A stretch of DNA of 64,000 bases. Origin: Candidatus Saccharimonadales bacterium. Its GTDB lineage: Bacteria > Patescibacteriota > Saccharimonadia > Saccharimonadales > SZUA-47. The position numbers and the translations under genes were made by a program. The DNA is taken from NCBI GenBank assembly GCA_038211855.1, contig JBBQVE010000001.1, positions 17,648-81,647 of the forward strand. The letters run 5' to 3'. Each line of letters starts with the position of its first letter. Positions within the stretch are counted from its first letter, which is position 1. The notes below the pieces were generated by a model that saw only the letters and a list, made by a program, of their open reading frames with translations, had not been told where the DNA came from and did no database searches. Positions 1 to 61,028 of this stretch are shown here, one piece after another.

Positions 1-279
1 TCCTACGGCGCCCTCATCCTTAGTCTCGTGCCCATCTATATCATCTATATCGAATCAACAGAGAATCTGAAGTGGGATTACCGCTGGCTGATGACCCCGG
101 TCTTTTGTGTGCTTGTAGCAGGTTTTGCAATCTGTTACCTTGTCATTCGTGACAGCAATACTCATCATTTCGTGAAGCGTTATATCTTCTTCACCACCGT
201 GTTCCTTTCGCCGTTTGTAAAAATGACGCTTGCCCTAGATGGACAACGACGTTTGCAACCAGTAAAAATACACAGGTAA
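1..279 (+). CDS. 3' end of a membrane protein whose start lies upstream of the window (partial CDS)
   Basis: Frame +1 is open from nt 1 to the stop at 277-279; the sequence is hydrophobic (VFCVLVAGFAICYLVI). No start codon is required because the gene is truncated by the window edge. Confidence 0.3.
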   Translation, partial: SYGALILSLVPIYIIYIESTENLKWDYRWLMTPVFCVLVAGFAICYLVIRDSNTHHFVKRYIFFTTVFLSPFVKMTLALDGQRRLQPVKIHR

Positions 280-387
280 ACAAGTCGGTCACAAATGAAT
301 GTGAGAAGAGGATGCGCTGGTGTACGAAAAAGTTCTTACGTGGCCCTGCCTCGTTCCTTTTCTCTTCCTTAACGCTTCCTCTTGTCA

Positions 388-446
388 TCTTCATTTTGTA
401 AATACAATAGTTGCACTGATGAGTCCTCTCAGGACGAAAATGAAGA
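388..446 (+). ncRNA. Hammerhead ribozyme motif, type III topology (stem III open)
   Basis: The complete catalytic core is seen directly. The first conserved block is C416-U-G-A-U-G-A422 and the second is G436-A-A438. Stem II is GUCC 423-426 paired with GGAC 432-435, with loop UCUCA. Stem III is AAUGAAGA 439-446 paired with UCUUCAUU 388-395 (8 bp, A15.1-U16.1). H17 is U396. Stem I is UGUAA 397-401 paired with UUGCA 411-415, with a 9-nt loop. Predicted self-cleavage is 3' of U396. Confidence 0.6.
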
Positions 447-449
447 GAC

Positions 450-974
450 CTAGTTGGCGACTATATACTTAGTGGCTTCGAGCAGGCTTCCTGCGGTGTA
501 GTCGGCCTCCGGAACATCTTCTTTTTTGTTGCTGGTATGGACGAAGATGGTTTTGGTGCCAGCACGGATACCTGCCGTGACGTCAGATTGACGGTCGCCA
601 ATAAAGTATGTCGTTTCGAGATCAAAGTTGTGCTCATCGGCTGCGCGCAGAATCATACCTGGGTTTGGCTTGCGGTATTTGCTCATCGAGCCTTCGAAAT
701 CAGGCGAGTAGTAGGTTGCCACAACTTTTATACCGCTCGGTTTGAGCATTTCTTTGACCTTTTCGTGCAGAAATTCAAATTCGTCCTGTGTGATGCGGCC
801 TTCGCCGATGCCGGCTTGATTCGTGATAAAGATTACGCCGTAGCCGTTATCGGAGAGAAGCCGAAGAGCTTCAATGGTGTCTGGGAACAGTTTAATCTTG
901 TCGACGCTGTCGACGCGCATGTCGGGCGGATCAACCAATACAGTGCCATCACGGTCAAGGAGGACTATTTTCAT
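450..974 (-). CDS. HAD-IIIA family phosphatase (GmhB / histidinol-phosphatase-like)
   Basis: 174 aa, ATG start. HAD motif I is LLDRDGTV; the motif FITNQ..G and a C-terminal GDRQSD (motif IV-like) are present. It lies 40 nt downstream of the heliorhodopsin gene on the same strand. Confidence 0.65.
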   Translation of the reverse strand: MKIVLLDRDGTVLVDPPDMRVDSVDKIKLFPDTIEALRLLSDNGYGVIFITNQAGIGEGRITQDEFEFLHEKVKEMLKPSGIKVVATYYSPDFEGSMSKYRKPNPGMILRAADEHNFDLETTYFIGDRQSDVTAGIRAGTKTIFVHTSNKKEDVPEADYTAGSLLEATKYIVAN

Positions 975-1014
975 ACCCCTAGCTTAACAGAGGCTTCAAG
1001 AACTCTTCTAATTT

Positions 1015-1776
1015 TTATGGTCGCAGCGTGCCCGCAAAAACTTGCCACGCCAACAAGGATTTCGCGACAAGACTTAAGACGATGTAAACACGCTCGCCAT
1101 ACAGGTAATTTTTCCAGGGGCCGACCTTCTTATACTGCAGAACCATATTGAGCGCAAAGCAACTAAAGAATACGAAGATTGATACAAAAATCCAATAAAC
1201 AAAAGTTGGCGCGGCACTACCGTTATGGGCACTAAACCAGAAGTAAAAAGCGATAACCGCCCAAGGGATGATGCCAGCAAAAGTGCCGATGTTAAAGCTC
1301 AACCAGCTGGTTTGAGAAGTTGTCTGATTATGTACTTCCATCACGAGTCCCATAAGATTCATGAGAGCGGTCAGGCAGAAGATCATCGCGAGACTCACAA
1401 CATCATAAACACCTACTAATAGCGCGATAGCGACCATCATCGTGCTAGCCGAAAGTGCATATTCAAACCAACGGGTTTTATTGATGCCGAGCAGTAGATT
1501 TTTGTTATAGGTTTTATTGTAGATGGTTGCAATAAATAGGTGAGCGGCCGCGGACAGAAAAAAGAATGCGACGATAAGTGCGGGCAATGAGAGAGTAAAA
1601 AGTGTTTTGCTGGCCGGTAGTAACTTTTGTGTAGCGCTGTCGAAACGAAGATAGCTGCCGCTTATTGGAAGACGAAAGCTGCGACTCAGGGCCATAACTG
1701 CGAGTCCTTGTGCTGTGTGTAGTCCCGCCATAACGAAATTGAATTTTCTTAGGCCGCTCGTCGTAATTTTTTTCAT
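1015..1776 (-). CDS. Heliorhodopsin (7TM retinal protein, inverted topology family)
   Basis: 253 aa from the ATG at 1776; the ORF track begins at an in-frame TTG at 1782. From memory it aligns along its whole length to heliorhodopsin 48C12. NFVMAGLHTAQGLAVMALS..LPISGSYL corresponds to NFNRIAGVFHLLQMLAVLALS..LPMTGTYL. TRWFEYALSASTMMV corresponds to FRWVEYSLSSSVMIV. GIIPWAVIAFY corresponds to GIVPWIGLLIY. The C-terminus YKKVGPWKNYLYGERVYIVLSLVAKSLLAWQVFAGTL corresponds to YKGKGKWSNYLRGERAYIVLSLVAKSALAWQIFSGTL, including the Schiff-base lysine in SLVAKS. Confidence 0.8.
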   Translation of the reverse strand: MKKITTSGLRKFNFVMAGLHTAQGLAVMALSRSFRLPISGSYLRFDSATQKLLPASKTLFTLSLPALIVAFFFLSAAAHLFIATIYNKTYNKNLLLGINKTRWFEYALSASTMMVAIALLVGVYDVVSLAMIFCLTALMNLMGLVMEVHNQTTSQTSWLSFNIGTFAGIIPWAVIAFYFWFSAHNGSAAPTFVYWIFVSIFVFFSCFALNMVLQYKKVGPWKNYLYGERVYIVLSLVAKSLLAWQVFAGTLRP

Positions 1777-1842
1777 ATTCAAATAGTATCACAATCGACT
1801 TACGAGGGTCATGGAGCTTCAAATAATAAAGTATGCACATAC

Positions 1843-1870
1843 AAAAGCCCCATCATTTGATGGGGCTTTT
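1843..1870. terminator. Rho-independent bidirectional terminator
   Basis: The sequence AAAA-GCCCCATCA-TT-TGATGGGGC-TTTT forms a perfect 9-bp GC-rich stem with a 2-nt loop, flanked by an A-tract and a T-tract. It sits 5 nt downstream of the minus-strand tRNA-Glu and separates that tRNA from the heliorhodopsin gene start. Confidence 0.7.
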
Positions 1871-1874
1871 GTAT

Positions 1875-1951
1875 TGGTGATCCCGGCGGGATTCGAACCC
1901 GCGATCTCCTGGATGAGAACCAGGTGTCCAAGACCACTAGACGACGGGACC
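1875..1951 (-). tRNA. tRNA-Glu (anticodon CTC), CCA encoded
   Basis: The reverse complement is GGTCCCG-TC-GTC-TAGTGGTCTTG-GAC-A-CCTGG-TTCTCAT-CCAGG-AGATC-GCGGG-TTCGAAT-CCCGC-CGGGATC-A-CCA. It folds as a cloverleaf with a 7-bp acceptor stem, a Glu-type D-arm (3-bp D-stem), anticodon loop TT-CTC-AT and a T-loop TTCGAAT. Confidence 0.8.
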
Positions 1952-2308: not shown

Positions 2309-2689
2309 TTATGACTCGAGCTGTTTGAGATATTCAACGAGTTCGCGTGGGGTGATTTCGGCCTTGATAAGGTAGCCATCGGCTTGTTTTTCGATGCGTT
2401 CGCGGGTGCCTTCTTCTTGGTCGAGGTTGGTCGTAACGATAATCTTGGCTTTGATTTGCTTCGGACGATCCGGGCTGCGCAAACGGCGCAACACCTCAAT
2501 GCCGTTAATGCCGGGAATCATCAGATCTAGTAAGATGATATCGTAGATGTCTTTTTCGGCTTCAACAACCGCTGTATCGCCGTCCGGTGCCGTAACAACT
2601 TCATAGCCGGCAGTTTGCAAAGCACGAGTATACAGCTCGCTAATGAAGAATTCGTCCTCGATACATAAGATTTTGAGTTTCTGATCCAT
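2309..2689 (-). CDS. Single-domain response regulator (CheY-like receiver)
   Basis: 126 aa with the receiver motifs IEDE (acid pocket), IILLDLMIPG (phospho-Asp), VTTN and YLIK. The RBS AGGAG is upstream of the ATG. It lies 3 nt downstream of the histidine kinase gene. Confidence 0.8.
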   Translation of the reverse strand: MDQKLKILCIEDEFFISELYTRALQTAGYEVVTAPDGDTAVVEAEKDIYDIILLDLMIPGINGIEVLRRLRSPDRPKQIKAKIIVTTNLDQEEGTRERIEKQADGYLIKAEITPRELVEYLKQLES

Positions 2690-2692
2690 GCT

Positions 2693-4237
2693 TTATCTCC
2701 TGTACATGCTATGGTTCTTAATCCAGCCGTGTGCTCCCCTCATGATACCATCTTGACCCTGTGCTTCAGCGCCATGTCGCGCTTCATCATACTGCTCGAG
2801 GGTAAACGTGAAGATGCTGCCTTCGCCTTCTTTGCTGTTGACCCAAATATTGCCACCATGGGCGTTGACGAGTGCTTTGCAGAGATACAAGCCAAGGCCG
2901 GTGCCCCCGATCTGAACACGACTACGGTGACTACGGTAGAATTTATCAAATAACTTTGGTACCACACTGGCGGGAATACCGAGGCCATTATCTTGAACGC
3001 TCGTTTCAACCATACCATCGCGGCCAATTTTACTGGTAATGGTAATCTGTTCGGACTTGCCGCCATACTTAATGGCATTATCAACGAGGTTATTGATGAT
3101 TTCATGGACGCTGATACGGTCGGCGGCGACCAGTGGAATCGATGGATCAATCTCAAGAACTATATGCTTGCCATGGACTTGGGCACGCAGCTCAAGGTCG
3201 GCTACGGCAGAGGTCAGGATCTCTTTGAGGTCTTCCTTGTGCAGCGTCAGCGTGAGCTGATTCTCACCGATGCGGGCCACATTCAGGATATTACTCACAA
3301 AGGCCGTCAGTTGCTGGGCGCTGGCGTGCATCTTATGCATAAAATCTTTCAATTCAGGCGCCAAACCTGGGCCAAGCTCGTCTTCAAAGACTTCTATATA
3401 ACCGCGCATAATGGTGAGCGGTGTGCGCAGTTCATGCACGGCCATCGCGACAAAACTAATTTCTTGATCATCAGCCGCATACGATTCGGTGTGATCGAAG
3501 AAAACGAGGACTGACTCAACCTCACCAGCGCCCTTGCTATAACTGGCCGCCATATCGAACTGCTTCGTCGGGTTGCCATCTGTATCTACCAAACGCACAC
3601 GGTTCCAGGTAGTGCCTGCCTTCACAACATTCTTCTGACAATCTGACAACCACGTCTCATAAGTGAGCTCGCTTGGAAAACTCATGTTTAGGATATCATT
3701 GATGTTTTTACCGATTGAGGCTTGTCGCTTTTCGGCATCGATACCCAGATACACCACCGCCGCATCATTCATATAGTGCAAATGTGAGGCACTATCGACG
3801 GTTAATACTGGCAACGGAGTGGCATTTAACATCTTTTCGCCGCCTATGACGGCCGCTTGCGGATGTGGCTCCTGTTCTTGACTATGACCCGCTTTGCTGG
3901 CCATTTCATATACTTGGAGGGCCAAAACAGATACCATCTCACGGCCAAGTTTTATATGTTCGATATCAGGAGCTGGTGTAGCAGAAGTCTCACGACTGAC
4001 GTGTAAGATGGCCTGACGCAGATTTTTGAGTGGTTCGAGGGCGTAGGATGTCGTGGCTGCGGACATAAAATATGCACAGACAAACCCAATCGTGATCGAG
4101 CCGACCGCTAACGGAATGTTTGGAACATGCAGATGTCTGCCTGCGAGCCACACGACGAGAGGAACGAGCGAGACAAGCATAAAAGCCATCCACAGTCGGC
4201 CAATGAGGGCTTTTTGGACGGCTTTTAAATGGTCCAT
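2693..4237 (-). CDS. Membrane sensor histidine kinase (HisKA + HATPase_c)
   Basis: 514 aa with an N-terminal TM segment. The H-box is AMAVHELRTPLTIMRGY. The N-box is NLVDNAIKYG, and a G-box DNGLGIP...GGTGLGL is present. Confidence 0.8.
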   Translation of the reverse strand: MDHLKAVQKALIGRLWMAFMLVSLVPLVVWLAGRHLHVPNIPLAVGSITIGFVCAYFMSAATTSYALEPLKNLRQAILHVSRETSATPAPDIEHIKLGREMVSVLALQVYEMASKAGHSQEQEPHPQAAVIGGEKMLNATPLPVLTVDSASHLHYMNDAAVVYLGIDAEKRQASIGKNINDILNMSFPSELTYETWLSDCQKNVVKAGTTWNRVRLVDTDGNPTKQFDMAASYSKGAGEVESVLVFFDHTESYAADDQEISFVAMAVHELRTPLTIMRGYIEVFEDELGPGLAPELKDFMHKMHASAQQLTAFVSNILNVARIGENQLTLTLHKEDLKEILTSAVADLELRAQVHGKHIVLEIDPSIPLVAADRISVHEIINNLVDNAIKYGGKSEQITITSKIGRDGMVETSVQDNGLGIPASVVPKLFDKFYRSHRSRVQIGGTGLGLYLCKALVNAHGGNIWVNSKEGEGSIFTFTLEQYDEARHGAEAQGQDGIMRGAHGWIKNHSMYRR

Positions 4238-4239
4238 TT

Positions 4240-5466
4240 TTACGGTGCAGCCGGCGCTGCAGGTGCCTTATAATTTACCATTGTGGCTTGGCCAAGTGCC
4301 GTGAACCAGGTTTGTCCAGGGTTAATCGGCAAAGTCACGCCGTTTGAGTCTTGGAGAACGAGCGGCGAGGTAGCCTGCGGTTTGCTCCACTTTGCAGTCG
4401 TCACGATACCGTCTTCGAAGACGACTGCATCGCCCGTTCCAATGCTAGCGTAGTCGCTGTGAATATCATCCGGATCGATGTTATAGCGAATGATGAGGGC
4501 GACAACGACCTTCGGCTCGAGCTGTTTACCGGACTTTTCATCAACGTGCGGCGCACCGGCTTCGCTGCGTTTGTAAGCATTGTTGGCGGCATCATAGTCG
4601 TAGTGCACGAAGAAATTGGTGCTAGAGATGGCAAAATCGAGGGTGGTAGCGTTTGGTGTCTTACTGGGTGCCTCGGCCTTTCGAGCTAAGCCAGTAAAAT
4701 CAGGATTGCCCCAGTTCCTGTCGCTCCGTACTTTATCAAGCACTGACATACTCGTATAGGCATTGTGTGGCGCATATCTCGAGCTGACGCGTTGAATCGG
4801 GTTATCGGCCCCATTCTCGCCCATATCCATCAATTTAAGTTGGCTAAGCATCTGCAAGGCCACGGCACTACCACCGATGTGCATATAGGTAGCATTGTAC
4901 GGCAATAGCCAGTTGATGTAATACGGCCGAGCACTCCGCACCGGTCCGATGTAGGTCGGTTGTTCGGTCTGGAAGAGGGCCAAAAAGCGTGTAATGCCAC
5001 CTTCGGCGATTGCTTCGTAGACGACGCCAGCGTCCAAAAGACCAGACTGTGGACGTGCGTCGATACTATTTTCGATCATGACACCAGTGACGCCGCGTTG
5101 GTTGAGTTCAGGCGTGACTTGTACGCCAGTTAATTTGCTTGCAACCGTTGTTGGCTTTGGTGGCTCAACCGCCTTCTGGATGACGGGCGCAGGCTTCAAG
5201 ACAGGTACGACTTTTTTAGGACGCGTCAGCAAAAAGGCCGCCACGACACTCCCAATTAGCAAGACACCAAGAGGAATAAAGATGAGCAGCTTTTTTTTGG
5301 TTGTCAGACGCGTAAACCAGTTTTGCTTTTTGCCAGCGCTAACTGTGAGGGTTGGTCCTGTATCGGTATCAACCATCGCGTCATCTGCCGCCATCTCTTC
5401 TGGAGGGACAAATTCTGGATCTTTTAAGGTATCATCTGGTTTTTTTATAGCTTTGGCGTTGTCCAT
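4240..5466 (-). CDS. DUF3048-family (YerB-like) membrane-anchored secreted protein
   Basis: 408 aa. An N-terminal acidic segment is followed by one TM helix (LLIFIPLGVLLIGSVVAAFLL). The C-terminal domain has DUF3048-like motifs (GVVYEAIAEGGITRFLALF, PVRSARPYY) recalled from memory. Its stop abuts the HK start, consistent with an operon. Confidence 0.45.
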   Translation of the reverse strand: MDNAKAIKKPDDTLKDPEFVPPEEMAADDAMVDTDTGPTLTVSAGKKQNWFTRLTTKKKLLIFIPLGVLLIGSVVAAFLLTRPKKVVPVLKPAPVIQKAVEPPKPTTVASKLTGVQVTPELNQRGVTGVMIENSIDARPQSGLLDAGVVYEAIAEGGITRFLALFQTEQPTYIGPVRSARPYYINWLLPYNATYMHIGGSAVALQMLSQLKLMDMGENGADNPIQRVSSRYAPHNAYTSMSVLDKVRSDRNWGNPDFTGLARKAEAPSKTPNATTLDFAISSTNFFVHYDYDAANNAYKRSEAGAPHVDEKSGKQLEPKVVVALIIRYNIDPDDIHSDYASIGTGDAVVFEDGIVTTAKWSKPQATSPLVLQDSNGVTLPINPGQTWFTALGQATMVNYKAPAAPAAP

Positions 5467-5561
5467 AGTTCACAAGTTCCCCACTAAACATTGTTATGCT
5501 TATTGTACGTGGCTTGGTCTCTGAATACAAACCGCCGTGAAAGATGTTAAACTAACAAGTA

Positions 5562-7217
5562 ATGACAGATACAACGACTGAACGAATTGCTGCCTTGCTC
5601 AGCGAAGGTCTGACGCTGAGGTCGCGTGCGCAGATTGAAGCTACCTTCCCTGCCCGCTCGTTGCCGCCAGGCGCCGAAGTGATGCGTGTGCCGCCCAGTC
5701 CGACGGGTTTTGTACATATTGGTACGATTTATGCAGGTCTCGTGAATGAGCGGATTGCCCACCAAAGTGCCGGCGTCTTCATTTTACGCATCGAGGATAC
5801 AGATAAGAAACGCGAAGTTGCTGGTTCGGTTGCGCGGATCGTTGAAGCGTTTGATTATTTTGACCTACAGTATGACGAAGGCCCGATCCGTGAGGGTGCT
5901 TATGGGCCCTATTTTCAAAGTCAACGCGGTGATATATATATGGCCTACGCTCTTGAACTGCTCCGTTCTGGCCGCGCCTACCCCGACTTCGCTACACCTG
6001 AAGAATTGCAGGCCACTACGGCTGCCCAGCAAGCTGCCAAAGTACGACCTGGTACCTATGGAAAGTGGGCACTGTGGCGTGAAAAAACTGATGAAGAGGT
6101 CACTGCTGCGCTTGATGCGGGCACACCGTTCGTCTTACGCTTCAAATCCACAGGAAGCCATGAGAAGCGCATTACTTATGAAGACGTCTTCAAGGGCCGT
6201 ATGGAAGTGCCCGAAAACGACCTCGATGTGCCGCTGATAAAAAGTGATGGCACGCGTCTGCCAACCTACCATCTGGCGCATGTCGTTGACGACACGTTGA
6301 TGCGTGTCACCAAAGTCTTCCGCAGCGACGAATGGCTACCAAGCACGGCGCTCCACATTGAACTCTGCCAAGCCCTCGAGCTTACTCCTTTTACCTATGG
6401 CCACTTTGCGCCAATCAGTATTTTGGACAAAAACGGTGGCGGCAAACGCAAACTTAGCAAACGCAAAGACGACGAAGCCAATGTGGAGTTTTGGATAGCG
6501 GCAGGTTACCCCGTCGAAGGCGTCAAAGCCTATCTATTGGGCCTCGCTAACTCAACGTTTGAAGACTGGTACCGTTCCAATCCAAGTGTTTCTCTGTCTG
6601 AGTTCCCTGTTTCTTTAGAAAAGTTAGCTGCCAGCCGTGCTCCGCTCCTCGACATGGCCAAGCTACAGGACTACTGTAAGGACTACATCGCATCACTACC
6701 TCAAGACGAGTTCAACAAACGATTGATTGCTGCTCAGACTAATAAAGATTTCAAGCATGCCCTTGAGGTTAATGCCGATTACACGAATAAAGTGCTAGAA
6801 ATCGAACGTACCGGTGAAAAACCGCGCAAAGACCTAGCCAAGTGGGAAGATGCCTTCGACAATTACGCCTATTTTTACGATCAATTATTCACGAAGGATT
6901 TTGCTCCTCAGATTTTGGCGCAACTCGAAGATATTGACACGAAAACTGTTGCACATGCCTGTGCTGCTTTTTTGGAGTCTTATGACCCGGCTGATGAGTC
7001 GCAGATCTGGTTCGAAAAGCTCAAAGCGGCCGCCGAAAAATGCGGTTTCGCAACAGACAATAAAGCTTTCAAAGCCAATCCAGAAAAGTTTGTGGGCAAC
7101 GTCGCCGATTTTGCGCGAATTGTCAGAGTCAAGTTAACTGGTAAAAACCGCACGCCCGACCTCACCGCCATCATGCGTGTAATGGGAATCGACCGTATCA
7201 AAAACCGCTTGCAATAA
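5562..7217 (+). CDS. gltX: Glutamyl-tRNA synthetase (class I)
   Basis: 551 aa. The HIGH-type motif is PSPTGFVHIGT, RIEDTD is present, and the KMSKS-type motif is KLSKRK. Confidence 0.8.
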   Translation: MTDTTTERIAALLSEGLTLRSRAQIEATFPARSLPPGAEVMRVPPSPTGFVHIGTIYAGLVNERIAHQSAGVFILRIEDTDKKREVAGSVARIVEAFDYFDLQYDEGPIREGAYGPYFQSQRGDIYMAYALELLRSGRAYPDFATPEELQATTAAQQAAKVRPGTYGKWALWREKTDEEVTAALDAGTPFVLRFKSTGSHEKRITYEDVFKGRMEVPENDLDVPLIKSDGTRLPTYHLAHVVDDTLMRVTKVFRSDEWLPSTALHIELCQALELTPFTYGHFAPISILDKNGGGKRKLSKRKDDEANVEFWIAAGYPVEGVKAYLLGLANSTFEDWYRSNPSVSLSEFPVSLEKLAASRAPLLDMAKLQDYCKDYIASLPQDEFNKRLIAAQTNKDFKHALEVNADYTNKVLEIERTGEKPRKDLAKWEDAFDNYAYFYDQLFTKDFAPQILAQLEDIDTKTVAHACAAFLESYDPADESQIWFEKLKAAAEKCGFATDNKAFKANPEKFVGNVADFARIVRVKLTGKNRTPDLTAIMRVMGIDRIKNRLQ

Positions 7218-7236
7218 TTGAGCTTTTCCCAGAGAG

Positions 7237-8301
7237 TTACAGGCTGGCGGCGATTCTGACAAGCTGATCGCTCGTCAGATCGGAGTTGCCCTCGATTTGA
7301 TACCACACTCCACCGTTGACCCAAGTAGCATTTGAGCCATCGTAGATATAAATAGTCCGTCCACGATCTTGATAGGTCTGATATGCTTTGCCACCGATGG
7401 CGACGAAGTTGCTCAGAAGCGTATCGCTGGTCCAGGTACTGGTCTGTTGGGAGAGTTTATAGTTGCGGCTCGCGTCACTGTTGGACTTGAAGCTGACAAC
7501 CACCTGCCCGGCGCTATATTGCACGGGACCTTGGAACGTAAAGCCAGATGGCGAGTATTCTGGCATTGTCGCTCCAAATCCGGCACGAGCAGAAGCAACT
7601 CGCATGGCCAGGTTCGGAACGTTCTGATAGGCATAAAAACCGCCAATCAATAGGCCGGCAAGCACTGTAGTAGAGATTGCTAAAGCCTTCGCGCTGATTC
7701 CTATCCTCTTCGCTATGCGCTTGTGCATTGGTTTCTTGGGATCATAAAACGGCTCATTGTGGCTTTGGGCAGCCTCAAGCGCACGATCCAGCAAATCAGC
7801 CGTCTTGGCTTTCTGGCTAGTAACTGCGCTGATAACTGGGACGATGGCCGGAGCTGGTCGGACTTCCAACGGTACGACTTTCTTAATAATTTGTGCAGGC
7901 ATTTGTGGTGCCCCAAACTTGTGGATCAGAGCACTCTTTTCTACCTGTTGGGCATGTTGTTCACGGCCGAGAGACGTGGCGGCGGTTCGCGGGGTGATAA
8001 TCGTTTTTGCTACTGGCTTACTGCTCGTAGCGGCAACGAGGATTGGTTTTGTAAGCGAAGCAGAAGACGGCTTTTTGACCACTGAGCGCATCAAAGTTTT
8101 GGTGCGTTGGACAGGCGTTGCTGGCAAGCCGCTGCCACCTCGAGCAACAGGGACAGAAGTCGAGTGCTTCGGTCGTTTCACAAAGCCGTCAACGACCATT
8201 TTTTGGGTATTTTTTGGTGTTGCATGTGTGCCAATCAAGGCGCCAGTGACAGCGTCGTAGCGCTGACCGTTGATTTCGATGAAGTTTTGCTGGTTGCCCA
8301 C
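7237..8301 (-). CDS. Hypothetical membrane-anchored protein (single TM, extracytoplasmic C-terminal domain)
   Basis: 354 aa. The TM helix is AISTTVLAGLLIGGFYAY. No family motifs were recognised. Confidence 0.35.
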   Translation of the reverse strand: MGNQQNFIEINGQRYDAVTGALIGTHATPKNTQKMVVDGFVKRPKHSTSVPVARGGSGLPATPVQRTKTLMRSVVKKPSSASLTKPILVAATSSKPVAKTIITPRTAATSLGREQHAQQVEKSALIHKFGAPQMPAQIIKKVVPLEVRPAPAIVPVISAVTSQKAKTADLLDRALEAAQSHNEPFYDPKKPMHKRIAKRIGISAKALAISTTVLAGLLIGGFYAYQNVPNLAMRVASARAGFGATMPEYSPSGFTFQGPVQYSAGQVVVSFKSNSDASRNYKLSQQTSTWTSDTLLSNFVAIGGKAYQTYQDRGRTIYIYDGSNATWVNGGVWYQIEGNSDLTSDQLVRIAASL

Positions 8302-8440
8302 GGTGTTCGTTTTTACCCTCTAAAATAAGCTTTTTTTGGCTCGAATGTCTGTGAGGTATCGTACACCACAGCCGGCTGTCCTGCAAGCTGTCCGATACCC
8401 GTAATAAGTGGTATACTGCAAAGACGAGAAGCAAAAACAA

Positions 8441-9925
8441 ATGGACTATCTAGACCCCATCAAGAAGCGCCGCCACCGCATACGACTGTACATCGGCTAC
8501 GGTCTTTTAACAGTTGCCGTCGCGATTGCTACGGTTATTCTCGTCTATATTGGTAACGGCTTCTATGTAGACCGAGTGACGGGTGATCTTATTCAAAATG
8601 GACAATTCTTTGTAAACAGCACACCCGACGGTGCATCTATCTTTCTGAATGGTCGCCAACAGCGACCCAAGACCGCTGGTCGATTAGTTGTTCCAAGCGG
8701 CGTGTATGATGTCTCCATCAAACGTGATGGCTACCGGGATTGGCGAGCCAATAATGTGCTACTCGAAGGTGGGACGGTCGAGCGGTTAGATTATGCGCGT
8801 CTTTTGCCGACCGTCCTTACACCAACGCCAGAACAGACTTTTGCAAACACATCCTATGCCGCGACAGAAAGCATCGACCGTCACTATATGACGCTTCAGT
8901 TTGCCGATCATCCGCTGAGTGTTTTTGTATTGGATCTTACGCAACCAGAAACTGCTCCAAAAGAAATAGCGTTGCCAAAAACGATCTTTAATGACCCAGC
9001 TCAAATTGGACAATTGAAAGTCACGGAGTGGGCCGACGATAGTAAACACTTCATTGTTAGCAACGTCGTGAACGGCGTCGTCCAAGACTATATATTAGTA
9101 AACAGTAATGCCCCCGACCAGTCACTCAATCTTACAAAAGAGCTGCATCTTGGTATAGCTGAGGTTACTTTCCATGATCGAGTCTATGATCAATATTATG
9201 TCTTTGACGCGACTGCCAAGACGCTCAGTACCGATAATTTAGCTGACAAAACACTTCGAGTAAAGGTCAAAGACGTCGTCACCTATAAAACGAATGGCAG
9301 CGACTACATACTCTACGTAACAGCGGCTGCTCCGGCCGATAAAGGCAAGATGCAAGTTCGACTCGAAACGGGCGACAAGTCGTATCTTATGCGAGAGGTA
9401 CCTGAATCGCCAACTTATCTGCTAGCAATTGCGAAGCTTGGCAATGCGCCTGTTATGGCTATTGGTGTCTCCAACGAAAATAAAGTAACCATTCTACGCG
9501 ACCCACTGACTTATTTGAGGGCGAATCCAAAGCAACTGTTGCCGCTACCGACGACCGTACTCCAGCTGAAAGCACCGACCGAAGTGTCGTTTTCAACAGA
9601 TGTGACAGCAGTGATGGCTCGTGGTGGTCTCAACTTTGCGACCCATAACTTTGATCTCGACAAGACGACAGCGTACAAACTGCCTGTACCAATCAGTGAC
9701 GTGCCGGTCCAGTGGGTAGATGGTAAGCACATGACGGCCATTAGTGGTGGTTCAGTCTATATGTTTGATTTTAGTGGTGAAAATCTTCAGAAAATGGTTG
9801 CGAGTCTCGATGGGCTTGGTATTTACTTCGACAATAGCTACCAGTCAGCTTATACTTTCACCGCCGATCAGAATGGCAAAGTCTTTAATATCAATCGCAC
9901 CCTTCTTATCGCCAAGAATCAGTAA
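8441..9925 (+). CDS. PEGA-domain membrane-anchored protein
   Basis: The ATG at 8441 is preferred because the track start at 8408 is GTG. An N-terminal TM helix is followed by a PEGA-like segment VNSTPDGASIFLNGRQ...SGVYDVSIKRDGY and then a long extracytoplasmic region. Confidence 0.5.
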   Translation: MDYLDPIKKRRHRIRLYIGYGLLTVAVAIATVILVYIGNGFYVDRVTGDLIQNGQFFVNSTPDGASIFLNGRQQRPKTAGRLVVPSGVYDVSIKRDGYRDWRANNVLLEGGTVERLDYARLLPTVLTPTPEQTFANTSYAATESIDRHYMTLQFADHPLSVFVLDLTQPETAPKEIALPKTIFNDPAQIGQLKVTEWADDSKHFIVSNVVNGVVQDYILVNSNAPDQSLNLTKELHLGIAEVTFHDRVYDQYYVFDATAKTLSTDNLADKTLRVKVKDVVTYKTNGSDYILYVTAAAPADKGKMQVRLETGDKSYLMREVPESPTYLLAIAKLGNAPVMAIGVSNENKVTILRDPLTYLRANPKQLLPLPTTVLQLKAPTEVSFSTDVTAVMARGGLNFATHNFDLDKTTAYKLPVPISDVPVQWVDGKHMTAISGGSVYMFDFSGENLQKMVASLDGLGIYFDNSYQSAYTFTADQNGKVFNINRTLLIAKNQ

Positions 9926-9994
9926 GCTTCATTTTAAGTCCGCACTCCAGGCGGTTTCAACCATTCCCCCACGAGAGGCCCTCGGCCACAAGCG

Positions 9995-11395
9995 TTAGAA
10001 CCAGTTTTTAATTTTTTGCCAAAGAGATGGTGAGTTGCCGGGTAGGATACCTTTGCTAGTCAGGGCTGGCGTCTTGTTTTCAACTTTCGCATTGGCGGCA
10101 GGATCTGGAGTTATCTGTTCACCGACCACAACCAGACGGTTCAGAGACGTGCCAGGAGGGTCACAAGTGATGAGCGTGGCGGAGTTGGCTTTTGAGGTTG
10201 GTCCAAGGACACTGACATCGGTCGGCTTTACGATTTTTTTATCAAATACTTGGTAGGTGTAGCGTACACCGCCCTTGTTTAGGCTAAAGGTATCACCAAT
10301 ATCGAGGCGCTTCAGCAGTACAAAAGCGAACTTATACTTCCCCTTGTTGAGGATATTGTTACTGGAGTGACCGACGATAACGACATTGCCGGTTTGACCA
10401 GGAACTGCCGAGGTTGAATAGTGTACAACACCGTCCTGCAAACTATCTTCAACAGCCTGTTCATTGTTGCTGTCGGTACCAAAGATGACAGGAATCTCGA
10501 GGTTAATCTTGGGAATAATGATTTCCTGATCTGGGCCGATATCGCCGGAGGTACCAATAATCGGCGTGGCACTCACCTGGTGACTTGGACTTATGAATGG
10601 TGCAATGAAGCGTTCATTGAAAAAGCTGAACAAGAGCAAAACAACGACCAATGATGCCATACCAAGCCCAAATAGCAGCGACTGGATGTGATGCTTTGCT
10701 GAAAGCTTTACGCCTTTTGGCATTGCTTTGCGCATCAGCTGGCGTTTGATTTCTGCAACTGTACGCGTGTCATTTGGCTTGTTTTTATCCCATGAACCGC
10801 CGACGACTTTTTCGGTTACTTCATCTGCTTCGTGGAGGGCTTTTTTGGGATGCTCGACGGGCTGTGCCTGAGCAGAATGGGCGCTATAAAACTCCTGCCA
10901 TACTTCATGTTTTTCGGCATCGGCCAATCCGGCGTAGTAAGCGTGCCATTCAATTTGAATCGCAGCCAGACTTTTGCCTGAATTCGTGAGATCGAGCATG
11001 TACTGCTGGTGTTTGGTACGTTCGGCGCCTGCCTGATAGGCTTCAATAGCTTCTTCGTCGGCATCAGGCTCATCTTTATAGATTTTGGCAAGTTTACTTC
11101 GCACGATGTTGAGAGCGGCCATATTGTGGTCTTTTTTAGCGTTCTGCTCTTCTTTTATGAGGAAGGCAGCATCTTGCTGTGGCGGTAAGACCAGAGAATG
11201 TTGACGTACTGATTCTTCTGACTCAGTTTCTCGATCGTCGTTAATATCGTTCACGCGATCCATGATCGCCTGCACATCTGCATCTGTTGTGACATCCGGC
11301 ATTGGATATTGCGAAGAAATCGGCTGCAGGTTCAGCTCCTTTTTCTTTAAAAGATGCCGCTTGGCATCCTCCTCCTCAGTCGGCGATGTAATCAT
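9995..11395 (-). CDS. Sortase-family transpeptidase with a ~235-aa acidic N-terminal extension
   Basis: 466 aa. The TM helix (LLFGLGMASLVVVLLLF) is near residue 240. The C-terminal sortase domain has GNVVIVGHSS and the catalytic-Cys motif TLITCDP. Confidence 0.7.
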   Translation of the reverse strand: MITSPTEEEDAKRHLLKKKELNLQPISSQYPMPDVTTDADVQAIMDRVNDINDDRETESEESVRQHSLVLPPQQDAAFLIKEEQNAKKDHNMAALNIVRSKLAKIYKDEPDADEEAIEAYQAGAERTKHQQYMLDLTNSGKSLAAIQIEWHAYYAGLADAEKHEVWQEFYSAHSAQAQPVEHPKKALHEADEVTEKVVGGSWDKNKPNDTRTVAEIKRQLMRKAMPKGVKLSAKHHIQSLLFGLGMASLVVVLLLFSFFNERFIAPFISPSHQVSATPIIGTSGDIGPDQEIIIPKINLEIPVIFGTDSNNEQAVEDSLQDGVVHYSTSAVPGQTGNVVIVGHSSNNILNKGKYKFAFVLLKRLDIGDTFSLNKGGVRYTYQVFDKKIVKPTDVSVLGPTSKANSATLITCDPPGTSLNRLVVVGEQITPDPAANAKVENKTPALTSKGILPGNSPSLWQKIKNWF

Positions 11396-13146: not shown

Positions 13147-13944
13147 TTAGTCGGCGAGCTCAATACTGATCGGACAGTGGTCAGACCCCATTGCCTCTGG
13201 GTGAATCGTGGCTGCTTTGAGGGAGTCTTTCAGCGAGTCGCTGATCATAAAGTAGTCAATCCGCCAGCCGACGTTGCGTTGACGTGCCCCGCCCCAGGCA
13301 GTCCACCACGTGTAAGCATCTTTTTCATCTGGATGTAGGGTTCGAAAAGTGTCCAAAAAACCGGTAGCGATCATTTTATCGAAACCTTCACGTTCTTCTG
13401 TCGTAAAACCGTGTTTACCGACGTTTTCGGCCGGTCGAGCAAGGTCGATTTCTTGGTGGGCGACATTAAAGTCACCGCAAAAAATCACTGGTGCGTCCTT
13501 TTCTAGTTCTTTTACGTGTTCAAGAAAAGCCGGATCCCAGATTTTGTGGCGCATACTCAGGCGTTCCAGCTTTTCCTTGCTGTTTGGGGTATACACGGTC
13601 ACCACCCAGAAGTCCTTAAATCGAGCGCTCAATACCCTGCCCTCGTCTGTTGTGGTACCAAATATATCCTTAAAATCATATTTTTTTTGGATAGCGGCTG
13701 AAAAGCCATTCCGTACTTCTAATGGCTCTATTCTCGAGAAAATCGCGGTACCAGAATAACCTTTCTTCTGTGCTGAGTGCCAGTATTCGTGGTACCCCGG
13801 CAGAACAACAGGTGACTGCTCCGGCTGGGCCTTCGTCTCCTGCAAGCATAAGATATCTGGTAGTTCCCGCTCCACAAATTCCTGAAATAGCCCTTTGTTC
13901 CACACAGCGCGGATACCGTTGACGTTCCACGAATAAATCTTCAT
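13147..13944 (-). CDS. xth: Exodeoxyribonuclease III / AP endonuclease
   Basis: 265 aa with MKIYSWNVNGIRA...LCLQETK...GDFNV...DHCP, which are the EEP-family catalytic motifs. Confidence 0.85.
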   Translation of the reverse strand: MKIYSWNVNGIRAVWNKGLFQEFVERELPDILCLQETKAQPEQSPVVLPGYHEYWHSAQKKGYSGTAIFSRIEPLEVRNGFSAAIQKKYDFKDIFGTTTDEGRVLSARFKDFWVVTVYTPNSKEKLERLSMRHKIWDPAFLEHVKELEKDAPVIFCGDFNVAHQEIDLARPAENVGKHGFTTEEREGFDKMIATGFLDTFRTLHPDEKDAYTWWTAWGGARQRNVGWRIDYFMISDSLKDSLKAATIHPEAMGSDHCPISIELAD

Positions 13945-14267
13945 AAGATAATTGTATCATTTGACATTACCTTTCGCCGTTTACGGCTCGTCAGCACGAC
14001 TTTCACATTCGTGGAGGTAATAGGAGCAGAGATGAGGAATTGGATTTTTTGGTGCTGGGGTTAGCCGGCAAGTAAAAATGGTCCAGACTCATGTCTGCTC
14101 ACCTAGGACGATCCCAGGATTTAACGATTGCTCGCTCCACGAAAAGTTGGACCCTTCGCTTCTTTGCTAGCTTACAGTAAGACATCGTTCGTGCCTTATT
14201 CAATCTTGATATCCTCGAAAGGAAATCAGCCCGCCTGTGAATTCAGGTGTTGGGGGGGATTCGTGCG

Positions 14268-17973: not shown

Positions 17974-18035
17974 TTCTATATAATAACAGAGGTTGAGTCA
18001 TAGACATAACCGTATATAAATGCTATAATAATTTT

Positions 18036-18677
18036 ATGTATAAAAGTGTAATAGTTGTGCCTGGTTTTAGTGAAAGTATTCGTTTCACCGAAGGATTAGC
18101 GAACGAGCTTACCTCTGGCCCATTTGCTCTTGCAGAGGATGCCGACATTGTTCGTGTTGCAGATCTTTTTGATGATCCGCTCAAATACGAAGCTGCGATG
18201 TCAGAACGACTCGTTGTGACGCATTCCGCTGGAATCATGGCTGTAAATAAAGCAGCCGAGATTATTGCACTGAATGCCCCGGAGCCGACGCGTCTACGCA
18301 CCACGGTCCGTGGTGCGACGGTAATTGCTTTTGATAAGGCAGTAGGCAAAGAAGCTGGTATTTCAAGCGGAGGACTGCTTGAGCCTGTCTTAGAAGTCGC
18401 GAGACACCCCTTAATTAACGCCAAGATTCCGCTCGCCATACGTAAGTTCTCATCATCCCAGAAACTTATAGATAACGCCGATGCGTTTCCTGGTGGCCGG
18501 TCCCTATTTGCGACCGAACAAGATCAGTTTGGTTTTGCCCGACCTGAAGCGATAGCGCGAGCGAACGATAATGGAGTTTTTGCACGCATGCTACAAGGCA
18601 AACATAATCATGCAATGTTTCAACCAAAAGACATGATGAGTCAAATCGCCACGGCTCTAGCCGAACGCGTGTATTAA
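18036..18677 (+). CDS. Hypothetical protein, possibly alpha/beta-hydrolase-like
   Basis: 213 aa. VTHSAG resembles a nucleophile elbow (G/T-H-S-x-G). This is a weak call. Confidence 0.3.
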   Translation: MYKSVIVVPGFSESIRFTEGLANELTSGPFALAEDADIVRVADLFDDPLKYEAAMSERLVVTHSAGIMAVNKAAEIIALNAPEPTRLRTTVRGATVIAFDKAVGKEAGISSGGLLEPVLEVARHPLINAKIPLAIRKFSSSQKLIDNADAFPGGRSLFATEQDQFGFARPEAIARANDNGVFARMLQGKHNHAMFQPKDMMSQIATALAERVY

Positions 18678-23070: not shown

Positions 23071-23646
23071 CTAAAAGTCGATGCCTTTGTTGGCGAGGAA
23101 TTTATCGTCAAAATGGTGCTTCAGCTTGGTCATGTTGGTGGCAATATCTACGAGAGGCAAAAACTTGTCTGGGAAGTTACGTCCAGTGACACAGATACTG
23201 GTTTTTGGGTCGCGGTTCTTCAGGAGGTTTTCGAGGTCTTTGGCTGGCAGGAGTCCATCATGTATAGAGTTATTAATTTCATCACAAATCACGAGGTCAT
23301 AGTTGCCACTCTTGGCATAGCCAAGAGCCTTTTTGTAGGTGTCGAGGGCGGCTTTTTTATGTTCGTCAGCAGTAACGTTCTTGGCGCTCATGTCGCCAGC
23401 GTTATAAAAGCCTTTGCCTCCTTTGTAGTATGTAAGCTGCTTTCCAAACACATTCGTTTCAATAAGTTTGGCAATCGCTAACGATTCACCCGTTTCCCAG
23501 GTTTTCACAAATTGCACATAAGCCACTTTCCAGCCGCGCCCAAGCGCACGAAGTAATAATCCCAAAGAAGCACTCGTCTTGCCCTTGCCATCTCCGGTAT
23601 ACACCACTGCAACGGATTGCTTTGTCTCAAAATCTTCAAATGCCAT
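23071..23646 (-). CDS. Cob(I)yrinic acid a,c-diamide / corrinoid adenosyltransferase (CobA/BtuR family)
   Basis: The P-loop VYTGDGKGKTSA matches the GNGKGKTTAA signature, and the C-terminal motif DLVICDEI is present. Confidence 0.55.
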   Translation of the reverse strand: MAFEDFETKQSVAVVYTGDGKGKTSASLGLLLRALGRGWKVAYVQFVKTWETGESLAIAKLIETNVFGKQLTYYKGGKGFYNAGDMSAKNVTADEHKKAALDTYKKALGYAKSGNYDLVICDEINNSIHDGLLPAKDLENLLKNRDPKTSICVTGRNFPDKFLPLVDIATNMTKLKHHFDDKFLANKGIDF

Positions 23647-25139: not shown

Positions 25140-25236
25140 ATGGGTGCTCCTTATCTTTTATCAAGATGTTTGTAGTTACTATACATAGTATAGCATCTCT
25201 TGCAATACCCTTAAAGGTGTCTGTTACACTAAAAAC

Positions 25237-25848
25237 ATGAGCAAAAAAATTTTGGCTGGACTGATAGGAGCATTGTTTCTTGGTTTCGTTATGTTTGCAG
25301 GACTACGGATGGTGCTTGCAAAAAATAAGGCGGTTCATTACCATGCAAATTTTGCCTTGTTTGTGAATGGCAAACGTGAAACTTTCGATAACTTTACGTT
25401 TTACGAAGAGGAGGCTGCCTGTGACCTTGCACAGGCTGATAACCCCAAGCACAATGCCCACATGCATGATAAGGTGAATGACCTCATCCACGTCCATGCC
25501 AGCGCTGTCACATGGGGTGCCTTCTTTGCCAACATTGGCTTCACTCTCGGTAACAAAGTAGTAACCACCGAAAACGGGGTATTTGTAGATGGTCAGGATG
25601 GTAATAGATTGCAATTTATTCTAAATGGCACCTCAATCACATCTGCCGAAAACAGAGTTATAAAATCTGAAGATGCCCTTCTGATCTCTTACGGACCAGA
25701 TGATGCGACCGGGCTTACGGACCAGTATAAGCAGATCAAGCATTCGGCCGCTGCGGCAAATGCCAGTAAAGACCCTGCTGGGTGCGGAGGGAGCGCGACA
25801 CTTACTTTAAGTGAGCGCTTCAAAAGAGCGTTCGACTTCACGAAGTAA
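25237..25848 (+). CDS. Hypothetical membrane-anchored secreted protein
   Basis: 203 aa with an N-terminal TM helix. It is His-rich (HYHANF, HNAHMHDKV...HVH). Confidence 0.35.
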   Translation: MSKKILAGLIGALFLGFVMFAGLRMVLAKNKAVHYHANFALFVNGKRETFDNFTFYEEEAACDLAQADNPKHNAHMHDKVNDLIHVHASAVTWGAFFANIGFTLGNKVVTTENGVFVDGQDGNRLQFILNGTSITSAENRVIKSEDALLISYGPDDATGLTDQYKQIKHSAAAANASKDPAGCGGSATLTLSERFKRAFDFTK

Positions 25849-27371: not shown

Positions 27372-27908
27372 ATGATACACATGTTATTTGCAGCTGATTC
27401 AGCCGCCAGTGATTCACCGCTGGCAGCACTTGGGGTGAATGGAAAGAGCTTCTTGTTCTCTCTGGTCACGTTTACCCTTGCCTTCTTGCTGCTCCGGCGC
27501 TTTGCACTGAAGCCGATTACCAAGATGCTGGCTGAGCGTCGCAGGGTCATTTCTGACGGCATTTTGCTCGGTGAGCAAATGGAAAAAGAAAAGGCTCGTC
27601 TTGACGGAACTGCTGCCGAAATCGTTCGTGAAGCCCGTCATGAAGCTGACAAAATTATCTCAATCGCGCACAAAGAATCTCGTGAATTGATTCATTTGGC
27701 GGAAAAAGATGCCAAAGTCAAAGTTGAAGCCATTATGAAAGATGCCGACGAGCGCATCGGCGAAGATGCTGATCGTGCCCGGCGTGGTGTCGAAAAAGAC
27801 ATTGTGAACTTGGTATCTGAAGCCACCGAAGCAGTCGTCGGTGAAACGATTGACGGTAGCAAAGACGCTGCCATTGTCGACCGAATCGTGAAAGGCCGCA
27901 AAAGATAA
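27372..27908 (+). CDS. atpF: F0 ATP synthase subunit b
   Basis: An N-terminal TM helix is followed by a long charged helix. Confidence 0.7.
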   Translation: MIHMLFAADSAASDSPLAALGVNGKSFLFSLVTFTLAFLLLRRFALKPITKMLAERRRVISDGILLGEQMEKEKARLDGTAAEIVREARHEADKIISIAHKESRELIHLAEKDAKVKVEAIMKDADERIGEDADRARRGVEKDIVNLVSEATEAVVGETIDGSKDAAIVDRIVKGRKR

Positions 27909-28306
27909 TGGTCACCCGCCTCGAACTAGCCGAAATTATTGGTGAACGCACGTTGCGAGAGCCGATAGATTCTCTTAAGAATGCCATCGCAGCATACCTC
28001 TTAGAAGAAGGCGATGTCAGTGAACTTGATTCACTGATGCGCGACGTTTTGGCATATCGGGCGGACCATGGCTACATAGAGGCAACATTATTGAGCGCCC
28101 ATCCTTTGACTGATGCAGTGCGGAAGGATGTGGCCGACCTACTGAAGCAAGAATATCCCGCCGCCAAAGCAATCTCGATGAATGAAACGATTGACCCGAG
28201 TGTTGTTGGTGGCCTACGAATCGAACTGGCGGGTAAAGAATTAGACCTGACCGTCAGAGCAAAACTGAATACCCTGAAACGATTAACCGCTGCAAGGAAG
28301 GATTAA
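27908..28306 (+). CDS. atpH: F1 ATP synthase subunit delta (short, 132 aa)
   Basis: The C-terminal OSCP signature IDPSVVGGLRIELAGKELDLTVRAKLNTL is present. The start overlaps the atpF stop. Confidence 0.6.
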   Translation: MVTRLELAEIIGERTLREPIDSLKNAIAAYLLEEGDVSELDSLMRDVLAYRADHGYIEATLLSAHPLTDAVRKDVADLLKQEYPAAKAISMNETIDPSVVGGLRIELAGKELDLTVRAKLNTLKRLTAARKD

Positions 28307-29873: not shown

Positions 29874-30749
29874 ATGGCAAGCACCCAAATTCTCCAAAGG
29901 CGCATCAAAAGCGTACGTAGTACTCGCCAGATTACCAAGGCGATGGAATTGGTTGCTGCCTCAAAAATGCGTCATGCAACAGAGGTCGCGGAAAGCGGTC
30001 GCAGTTACCGCGAAGCCGCTCACGAGTTACTTTCACGCCTTGCGACTGTCAGTGATGTAAAAGAGCATCCTTTATTTATCCAGCGTCCAGTGAAGATTCG
30101 TCTTTACATCGCCATCACATCTGATCGCGGCCTCGCTGGTGCCTACAATTCAAATATCATCCGTCTGCTCACCAAAGCCGCCCTGGCTGACGAAGCCGCC
30201 GGTATTAAAGTCCAAGCCATGGTAATTGGGACGCGCGGTGTGCAGTTTGTGCGTCGTTTAGAAGGTATTGATCTGTTGGCAGCTTACCCAAGTTTCGGCG
30301 ATCAGCCGTCAGCTAATGACATTCGCCCGCTCCTTTCCAGCGCGGCTGATTTGTATGCCACCGGCAAAGTCGATGATGTGCAGTTGCTCTACACGCAACA
30401 CGTTTCGAGCATTGTTCAAACCGCTACTGCACTTTCACTATTGCCTGCCCGCCTCGAAGCTGGCACCAGCAATGAACCCGTACAGAAACTCGACAGTTTT
30501 ACTTTCGAACCGTCCGTGACGGCTGTACTTGATAATGTTACTGAGCGTCTTTTGGAAGTCCAAATCTGGCAAGCGATGCTCGAAAGTATTGCGAGCGAAC
30601 ACTCGATGCGTATGCTTAGTATGAAGAACGCCACTGACAACGCCAACGATCTGATTGATGATCTGACGCTGGCCTTCAACACGGCTCGCCAGGCGAACAT
30701 CACCCAGGAAATCGCCGAGGTGACAGGTGGTGCGGAGGCCATGAAATGA
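29874..30749 (+). CDS. atpG: F1 ATP synthase subunit gamma
   Basis: MKNATDNA...ITQEI..E C-terminal helix motifs are present. Confidence 0.85.
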   Translation: MASTQILQRRIKSVRSTRQITKAMELVAASKMRHATEVAESGRSYREAAHELLSRLATVSDVKEHPLFIQRPVKIRLYIAITSDRGLAGAYNSNIIRLLTKAALADEAAGIKVQAMVIGTRGVQFVRRLEGIDLLAAYPSFGDQPSANDIRPLLSSAADLYATGKVDDVQLLYTQHVSSIVQTATALSLLPARLEAGTSNEPVQKLDSFTFEPSVTAVLDNVTERLLEVQIWQAMLESIASEHSMRMLSMKNATDNANDLIDDLTLAFNTARQANITQEIAEVTGGAEAMK

Positions 30750-34228: not shown

Positions 34229-34364
34229 AAGAATAACAAATTAATGAGTATATTATACAATAAAAGATTACAGATAGCAACAGTTTAGCTGAAGCTCTTA
34301 CTGCGTACTATATACGGTTGTCCCTATCTTTAGCAAGCATACTTTGTGATGTAGAACACACCTT

Positions 34365-36196: not shown

Positions 36197-36245
36197 AATT
36201 AGATTATAATACGGGAAAGCCGTCTAAACTCCTAAAAGGATATAC

Positions 36246-52654: not shown

Positions 52655-53392
52655 TTGTGCTTATTCATGCATAAAAAAGGAACGCTGCTGTACTGTTTCT
52701 CACCGCCGGTCATGCTGGTAACGTTTGTCATTGAAATCACTTTAGCCCTATACACTTTATGGCGCTATAAGATGAACACGATTGCCCGTTTAGCAGCGTT
52801 GATGCTGCTCTTTTTGGCAATCTTCCAAGTGTCCGAATACATGCTCTGCGGCGGACTCGGTTTTACTGGAGTAGATTGGATCCGATTTGGCTATGTTTCG
52901 ATTACTGTGTTGCCACCGCTGGGTCTGCATATGGCGGTCATTTTGGCCGGCAAAAAGCGTTTTAACTGGCTGGTACTGACGAGCTACATATCGGCTGCGG
53001 TATTCATTTACTTTTTCGTGTTTGTCACCAAAAGCCTCAATGGCAAAGACTGTATGCCGAATTATGCGGTCTTTCATGTGGACCACAAGCTGACAGACTT
53101 TTACGGGCTGTATTACTACGGCTGGCTGATTGTGAGTTCGGCTTTGGGGCTGTATTGGGCGCAAAACTCCAAATATCGCCGCAACTTATTGGGTCTTGTT
53201 GCCGGCTACGGCGTGTTCATCATTCCCTCTGCGCTAGTGGTTATTCTTAACCCATACACGACACAAGCCATTCCATCGGTCATGTGCGGCTTTGCGGTAC
53301 TCATGGCGATTAGCTTAGTCGTCTTTGTGTTGCCGGGCGCGGGAGTACACCGTAAGGTTGGCGTTATTCACAAGGAATCATCCAAGAAGTAG
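52655..53392 (+). CDS. Hypothetical polytopic membrane protein
   Basis: About 7 TM segments. The start is uncertain (alternative Mets at codons 5 and 40). Confidence 0.35.
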   Translation: MCLFMHKKGTLLYCFSPPVMLVTFVIEITLALYTLWRYKMNTIARLAALMLLFLAIFQVSEYMLCGGLGFTGVDWIRFGYVSITVLPPLGLHMAVILAGKKRFNWLVLTSYISAAVFIYFFVFVTKSLNGKDCMPNYAVFHVDHKLTDFYGLYYYGWLIVSSALGLYWAQNSKYRRNLLGLVAGYGVFIIPSALVVILNPYTTQAIPSVMCGFAVLMAISLVVFVLPGAGVHRKVGVIHKESSKK

Positions 53393-60667: not shown

Positions 60668-60787
60668 AGATGCTCCCCCGTTAGTTGAACGGTTTAAATC
60701 ACAATATCATATAGTTGCAGGGATAGAAATCATAAGCAAAAATAATCTTCCCACCCCTTATGCTTACGCATCTTGCGGGACTTTATT

Positions 60788-61027: not shown

Positions 61028-61028
61028 A

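Follow-up and report, generated by a model that had tools for sequence, protein, structure and literature searches.

A 64,000-nucleotide (nt) stretch of a Candidatus Saccharimonadales genome (GenBank assembly GCA_038211855.1, contig JBBQVE010000001.1; coordinates 17,648 to 81,647), hereafter the window, was found to carry a heliorhodopsin (HeR) gene next to a gene for a HAD-IIIA phosphatase. Taken as a whole, it is quite probable that the HeR is a typical non-pumping, retinal-binding photoreceptor with a predicted sensory role, which stands alone, scavenges its retinal, is transcribed from its own start-proximal promoter and was placed beside an unrelated HAD gene by a lineage-specific insertion or deletion (indel). 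The adjacency of HeR and HAD is specific to one lineage, and the locus shows a HeR unit that is cleanly present in one of two close Saccharibacteria relatives and absent from the other.

The heliorhodopsin and its host

The HeR gene (window coordinates 1015 to 1776, minus strand; ATG at 1776, stop codon at 1015–1017) encodes a protein of 253 amino acids (aa). This open reading frame (ORF) covers positions 1–242 of the 242 in the Pfam model PF18761 with 311 bits (cutoff 26.7), and scores 320.6 bits (cutoff 100) against the NCBIfam HeR equivalog NF038020. Residues 8–253 align with the crystallised TaHeR from a Thermoplasmatales archaeon (PDB 6is6/7u55; E 1.5e-75 and 257 bits with 6is6), which is the best solved relative, and with the founding heliorhodopsin 48C12 (PDB 6su3; E 4.2e-49), which belongs to the same family but is more distant. 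The conserved HeR residues are all in place, with His20, His79, the counterion Glu105, Ser235 and the Schiff-base Lys239 aligned to TaHeR His23, His82, Glu108, Ser234 and Lys238, respectively. Glu105 lies within the motif RWFEY of transmembrane helix (TM) 3, and Ser235 and Lys239 lie within SLVAKS of TM7. The ORF is a heliorhodopsin beyond reasonable doubt. The original prediction had identified it as such, had placed the retinal lysine in SLVAKS and had aligned the protein end to end with 48C12, all of which was borne out, though TaHeR proved to be closer than 48C12.

The window HeR differs from TaHeR in its bacterial host and by four residues in the TM5–TM6 loop. A crude hydropathy scan returned six segments, with TM3 and TM4 merged into one; the end-to-end alignment to a solved seven-TM (7TM) HeR implies seven TM helices in the inverted topology. 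The N-terminus and the TM2–3 and TM6–7 loops are rich in Lys and Arg, consistent with a cytoplasmic N-terminus.

The exact HeR and HAD sequences are present in NCBI on a 165,565-nt contig. The NCBI copy of the HeR (P0001) is annotated as a protein of 226 aa, leaving out the 27 aa encoded at 1696 to 1776 (minus strand), and the annotated start cuts off the conserved His20 and part of TM1. The longer start giving 253 aa is backed by the homologues and by the putative promoter described below.

The best homologues of the HeR, the HAD and a nearby histidine kinase (HK) that carry names come from Candidatus Saccharibacteria or Saccharimonadales, and nearly all of the best 80 HeR loci in GTDB species representatives come from this group. 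The genome belongs to the candidate phyla radiation (CPR), in line with its earlier description as CPR-like. Eighty HeRs have been published from Saccharimonadia, with SLVAK among their commonest motifs (Chiriac et al. 2022, PMC9166423), and the window HeR shares the clade and the SLVAK TM7 motif of these Saccharimonadia/CPR proteins. The best 120 database matches were 71–79% identical to the window HeR, those with names being from Saccharibacteria, and beyond its own NCBI copy the window HeR shared at most 79% identity (partial alignment) or 77% (full length) with any match. The protein is thus nothing unusual within a group that was already known, but a new sequence at the species level, and the locus is not described in PMC9166423.

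The G+C content of the HeR gene (0.45) and its G+C at third codon positions (0.50) are slightly below those of the neighbouring genes (0.48–0.52 and 0.51–0.58, respectively). A foreign origin was considered on this basis, but the difference was judged not to be decisive.

Pfam scans of 58 ORFs from the 64-kb window revealed no blh, crt or bac_rhodopsin gene, and there was no match to the families of Blh, phytoene synthase or desaturase, lycopene cyclase or type-1 rhodopsin, in agreement with what had been reported for the window. The 58 ORFs include nearly all of the non-overlapping ORFs of at least 110 aa, the exceptions in the scan being 27908–28306, 29874–30749 and a few overlapping ORFs. 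The lack of retinal genes in the window is consistent with a HeR that would obtain its retinal from outside the cell. Retinal uptake without blh in Saccharibacteria has already been published and is not new; members of the group with type-1 rhodopsins and without blh were proposed to take retinal from their hosts (PMC9296517). According to earlier work as cited in a passage of the same paper, the organism of TaHeR lacks a retinal pathway and imports its retinal, HeRs of the TaHeR type bind exogenous retinal, and HeR is used by other microorganisms that have no such pathway.

A TspO/MBR protein is encoded at 55715 to 56113 (minus strand). This gene had been noted as a distant tspO and the only pigment-related gene, and is indeed present, but the match is solid (100.7 bits) and not a distant one. 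It covers model positions 19–143 and is short at the N-terminus, and the start of this ORF may be miscalled.

An indel beside the phosphatase gene

The adjacent gene (450 to 974, minus strand) encodes a protein of 174 aa that was assigned to HAD-IIIA by TIGR01662 (97.5 bits, cutoff 44.6) and TIGR01656 (112 bits, cutoff 84.15) and, as stated in the original prediction, it follows the HeR gene on the same strand after 40 nt. The closest relative was a 25-kb contig (L081) in which the HAD is 81% (P0122) and the HK 86% identical to those in the window. L081 is collinear with the window from 11559 down to 475, about 11 kb, with 74–75% nt identity, and the gene order common to both is sortase, PEGA, an unnamed gene, GluRS, DUF3048, HK, response regulator (RR), a small membrane ORF, tRNA-Glu and HAD. 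The sole break in this collinearity, where the blastn alignment is interrupted, is at 992 to 1873 (minus strand). The 882 nt found there in the window, consisting of a hairpin, a putative promoter, the HeR gene and a further 23 nt, correspond to 9 nt in L081, in which only 27 nt separate tRNA-Glu from the HAD start codon and no HeR lies between them. The HeR gene, hairpin and putative promoter therefore form an indel of 882 nt that borders on a conserved block, in a place where the genes downstream are different in every genome examined. The G+C content of this segment is 0.44, compared with about 0.50 in its flanks.

Conservation of the HeR-HAD pair was assessed from both sides. The 80 Saccharibacteria HeR loci, taken at GTDB species level (HeR proteins 60–75% identical, flanks of at most 6 kb), were searched for HAD homologues using tblastn (E ≤ 1e-3), and none was found within 6 kb of a HeR gene (0 of 80; best E = 1.6). 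For the reverse comparison, 82 HAD loci were available, namely 80 metagenomic loci, L081 and L082. The metagenome scan had found nothing with the single HAD protein as query, and was redone with an alignment of 33 sequences (A1). A HeR gene next to HAD was seen only in L082, which is the same organism (100% identity over 1343 nt), and in none of the other 81 HAD loci. The stretch of at least 1 kb upstream of HAD that is needed to see a HeR gene was held by 45 of the 82 loci, L081 included (44 of 81 without L082), so about half of them are informative in this reverse comparison. No gene accompanies HAD constantly either, as an HK with a PAS domain (PAS-HK) follows it in L081 and L082 only.

The HeR neighbourhoods were found to vary widely. 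No cluster of neighbouring genes occurred in more than 7 of 78 HeR loci, and in a Pfam scan of 150 immediate HeR neighbours the commonest families were NAD_binding_10/NmrA (7), ClpB (6) and VKOR (5), with no HAD family among the top 25. This high variability argues that any HeR partner in this phylum is not encoded next door.

The original prediction had suggested the phosphatase as a conserved operon partner, and had itself tied the operon to conservation of the gene pair in related genomes. As the pair is not kept, the nearest syntenic relative having tRNA-Glu followed by HAD, the operon inference is refuted on those terms. With a conserved phosphatase partner refuted, the locus offers no partner clue to HeR function; the pairing is an accident of one lineage and therefore uninformative in this respect, and HeR-HAD biochemistry is not warranted on the strength of this locus.

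The surroundings of the HeR gene are variable, and the gene lies where a conserved block ends. The block sortase-PEGA-x-GluRS-DUF3048-HK-RR (2309 to 11395) is kept in L081 and in the relatives L163 to L168, with HK identities of 62–86%. Its last genes are those for HK and RR (2309 to 4237, minus strand), and the block is present in relatives with or without HeR. Wherever a contig runs on, the block ends at RR, and the content downstream differs among the window, L081 and L166 to L168; in each of the latter three the block stops exactly at RR and different genes come next. The contigs of L163 and L164 stop at the tRNA-Glu promoter, and that of L165 ends just after HK. In a further locus, L032, 834 nt separate a HeR gene from the orthologous tRNA-Glu/RR/HK, but this HeR gene is inverted by comparison and has another gene beside it.

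Directly downstream of HAD, a second indel was observed, with 831 nt where L081 has 29 nt. It extends past the left end of the window (L082 coordinates 870–1700), and the part within the window (1 to 474, plus strand) includes the C-terminal part of a 135-aa ORF, which is hydrophobic, has no Pfam hit and lies on the strand opposite to HAD. This ORF separates HAD from the PAS-HK gene situated beyond the window.

Viral contigs were scanned for close relatives of the HeR and none was found, giving no support for a phage as the vehicle. An association with tRNA genes was also considered, but a tRNA within 1.5 kb was seen in 11 of the 80 HeR loci, which is about chance for roughly 45 tRNAs in a 1-Mb genome. 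Two of the HeR loci (L029 and L064) are on one contig of a Saccharimonadales metagenome-assembled genome (MAG), DASTXH010000031.1, which thus carries two heliorhodopsin genes ~54 kb apart.

Since the HeR gene lies between two HK/RR pairs, the HK-RR pair upstream and a PAS-HK and RR pair downstream beyond the window, it might be proposed that the HeR is the light input of these flanking two-component systems. Such a role has been proposed for HeRs in several phyla, Patescibacteria included; HK and RR genes near HeRs were reported by Bulzu et al. (PMC8612252), and the HeR gene in L032 also adjoins the orthologous HK-RR and tRNA-Glu. However, the same HK-RR block occurs without HeR in L081, L166, L167 and L168, and a homologue of the window HK was found within 6 kb of the HeR gene in only 4 of the 80 HeR loci, about what chance would give in a genome of roughly 1 Mb. 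HisKA and Response_reg are also outside the top 25 families of immediate neighbours, and this role for the HeR appears unlikely.

Putative transcription signals around the HeR gene

The tRNA-Glu (CTC) gene at 1875 to 1951 (minus strand) is 100% identical to the copy in L081. Directly after its 3' CCA, a perfect 16-bp hairpin followed by a U-rich tract (UUUUGUAU; 1839 to 1874, minus strand) was found. This hairpin has a folding energy of -26.9 kcal/mol (z -7.9), which was equalled by none of 200 shuffled sequences, and it belongs to the HeR indel and is missing from L081. It is likely to be the tRNA terminator. The promoter/terminator scanner missed it because the stem absorbs the T-run, and it was confirmed by folding. 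A strong terminator had been placed between the tRNA and the HeR gene, and a strong hairpin does separate the two.

An extended -10-like element (TGATACTAT) lies at 1783 to 1791 (minus strand), 6 nt before the HeR ATG, and is predicted to function as a promoter. A second such element (TGTTAAGCT; 981 to 989, minus strand) lies 6 nt before the HAD ATG, within the 40-nt spacer between the HeR and HAD genes (975 to 1014, minus strand), and is homologous to TGTTATGAT-N6-ATG preceding HAD in L081. As each gene has its own extended -10 element, an obligate operon or co-transcription is not required, and the motifs suggest that HeR would normally be the first gene of its own transcript and that HAD could be expressed alone.

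The arrangement TGNTANNNT-N6-ATG occurs seven times in the window, where 1.96 occurrences are expected, and six of the seven are exactly at ORF starts (972–989, 1774–1791, 13942–13959, 18021–18038, 25222–25239 and 57559–57576), those of HeR and HAD included. A looser form, TG.TA...T ending 4–9 nt before the ATG, was present at 37 of 74 Saccharibacteria HeR starts, compared with 1.46% of all ATGs in the same loci. A -10 element 6 nt ahead of the ATG has the geometry of leaderless genes, so the HeR mRNA is probably leaderless, and the enrichment suggests that leaderless transcription may be widespread in the Saccharibacteria clade. A full-text literature search on leaderless transcription in Saccharibacteria turned up no paper that describes this. 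The presence of a start-proximal extended -10 element at half of the HeR genes would be useful for annotating start codons, because the NCBI copy of this HeR was annotated 27 aa too short.

Together, these features point to a stand-alone HeR gene in a Saccharibacteria genome, the product of which would obtain its retinal from outside the cell. The 882-nt segment would be a self-contained unit in the variable region bordering a conserved gene block. In this unit the hairpin would end transcription of tRNA-Glu, and the coding sequence would follow the extended -10 element, the position of which 6 nt ahead of the ATG implies a leaderless mRNA. HAD would be a resident gene that is unrelated to HeR and has a promoter-like element of its own, and would have become a neighbour of HeR only because this lineage acquired the unit or the sister lineage lost it. 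Transcription may to some extent run on from HeR into HAD, but this would be without functional meaning.

Several points weigh against this account. The scan for retinal genes covered 64 kb of the genome rather than the whole genome. The closest HeR in the databases searched is only ~77% identical, and conservation within the genus is therefore assessed by a single genome, L081. The promoter activity and leaderless transcription are read from sequence motifs. The HeR and HAD genes share a strand and are 40 nt apart with no terminator, hence a bicistronic transcript is possible. The -10-like hexamer of HAD (TAAGCT) is weaker than that in L081 (TATGAT), and HAD could now depend partly on read-through.

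The last two points would favour a lineage-specific functional operon, in which HeR and HAD are co-transcribed and the HeR modulates the phosphatase by light. The spacer between the genes has no significant structure and no terminator (fold z 0.14), so read-through from HeR into HAD is physically possible, and the HAD -10-like element is degraded relative to that in L081. Of the co-transcription originally predicted, the shared strand, the 40-nt gap and the lack of a terminator stand, but HAD retains a promoter-like element of its own. The operon would be analogous to those in which published HeRs regulate the product of the adjacent gene, the experimentally supported partners being glutamine synthetase, photolyase and an ABC transporter (PMC9529153, PMC9769723, PMC11109279). 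Like the HeRs in the AbHeR-glutamine synthetase, TfHeR-photolyase and OcHeR-OmrDE ABC transporter operons, the window HeR has a close neighbour on the same strand. However, this neighbour, a HAD-IIIA phosphatase, does not represent a recurrent group, as HAD phosphatases are in none of the ten recurrent HeR neighbour groups surveyed (PMC11109279), and the pairing is unique to one lineage. The pair is missing from the 80 HeR loci and from the 81 other HAD loci, and the nearest relative carries HAD without HeR at the same site. HAD is also a soluble enzyme with its own start-proximal promoter motif still recognisable. A functional operon of this type is therefore very unlikely.

It is also highly doubtful that insertion of the HeR gene upstream of HAD created a young light-regulated unit, in which read-through or a direct interaction between HeR and HAD would tune the phosphatase. 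If this were the case, a new class of HeR partner would have been caught at its origin. A milder version of this reading would apply to Saccharibacteria HeRs in general, the genes of which might be leaderless cassettes of one gene each, self-contained, gained and lost time and again in variable parts of the genome and in no need of a dedicated genomic partner.

An assembly artefact might be suspected, in which the HeR segment was wrongly placed between tRNA-Glu and HAD in the MAG contig, given that both HeR flanks are collinear with L081, that in two related organisms the contig breaks off at the tRNA-Glu promoter and that the G+C content of the segment is low. Such an artefact is extremely improbable, as an independent Logan assembly (L082) has the HeR-HAD junction with 100% identity, the boundaries are clean and functional-looking (a hairpin right after the tRNA CCA, a promoter-like element and an intact ORF), and both joins of a chimera would have to fall within 882 nt.

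The phosphatase and other features of the window

The HAD protein resembles the GmhB and histidinol-phosphatase (HisB-N) subfamily of HAD-IIIA, with which it shares the DxDxT, T, K and DD motifs. None of its catalytic motifs is disrupted, and D7, D9, T11, T51, K102, D127 and D131 are invariant in the alignment of 33 sequences. However, it falls below every equivalog cutoff tried, including those for GmhB (NF006506, 122.2 bits, cutoff 178; TIGR00213, 98.2 bits, cutoff 149.6), and it lacks the CxH...CxC zinc loop. At residues 88–101, where most Saccharibacteria homologues have the zinc-loop motif CPHxPxDxCxC, the window HAD has SPDFEGSMSKY, and a minority subgroup carries SPHGxNEVNxW instead. 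The substrate specificity of this HAD may differ.

Elsewhere in the window, the region at 52655 to 53392 (plus strand) encodes a 245-aa protein similar to the N-terminal 7TM part of histidine kinases (28.3 bits to PF16927, cutoff 28.6), in which the kinase domain is missing. A segment of ~1.15 kb (60700 to 61850) contains no ORF of at least 110 aa and no Rfam family at the gathering threshold. An ATP:corrinoid adenosyltransferase (PF02572, 160 bits) is encoded at 23071 to 23646 (minus strand), which is unexpected given the reduced metabolism of Saccharibacteria. Three consecutive genes for ATP-grasp (RimK-like) proteins adjoin a gene for a MATCAP-like peptidase, the latter a weak match, at 32942 to 37535, and this group may represent a peptide-ligation or modification cluster.

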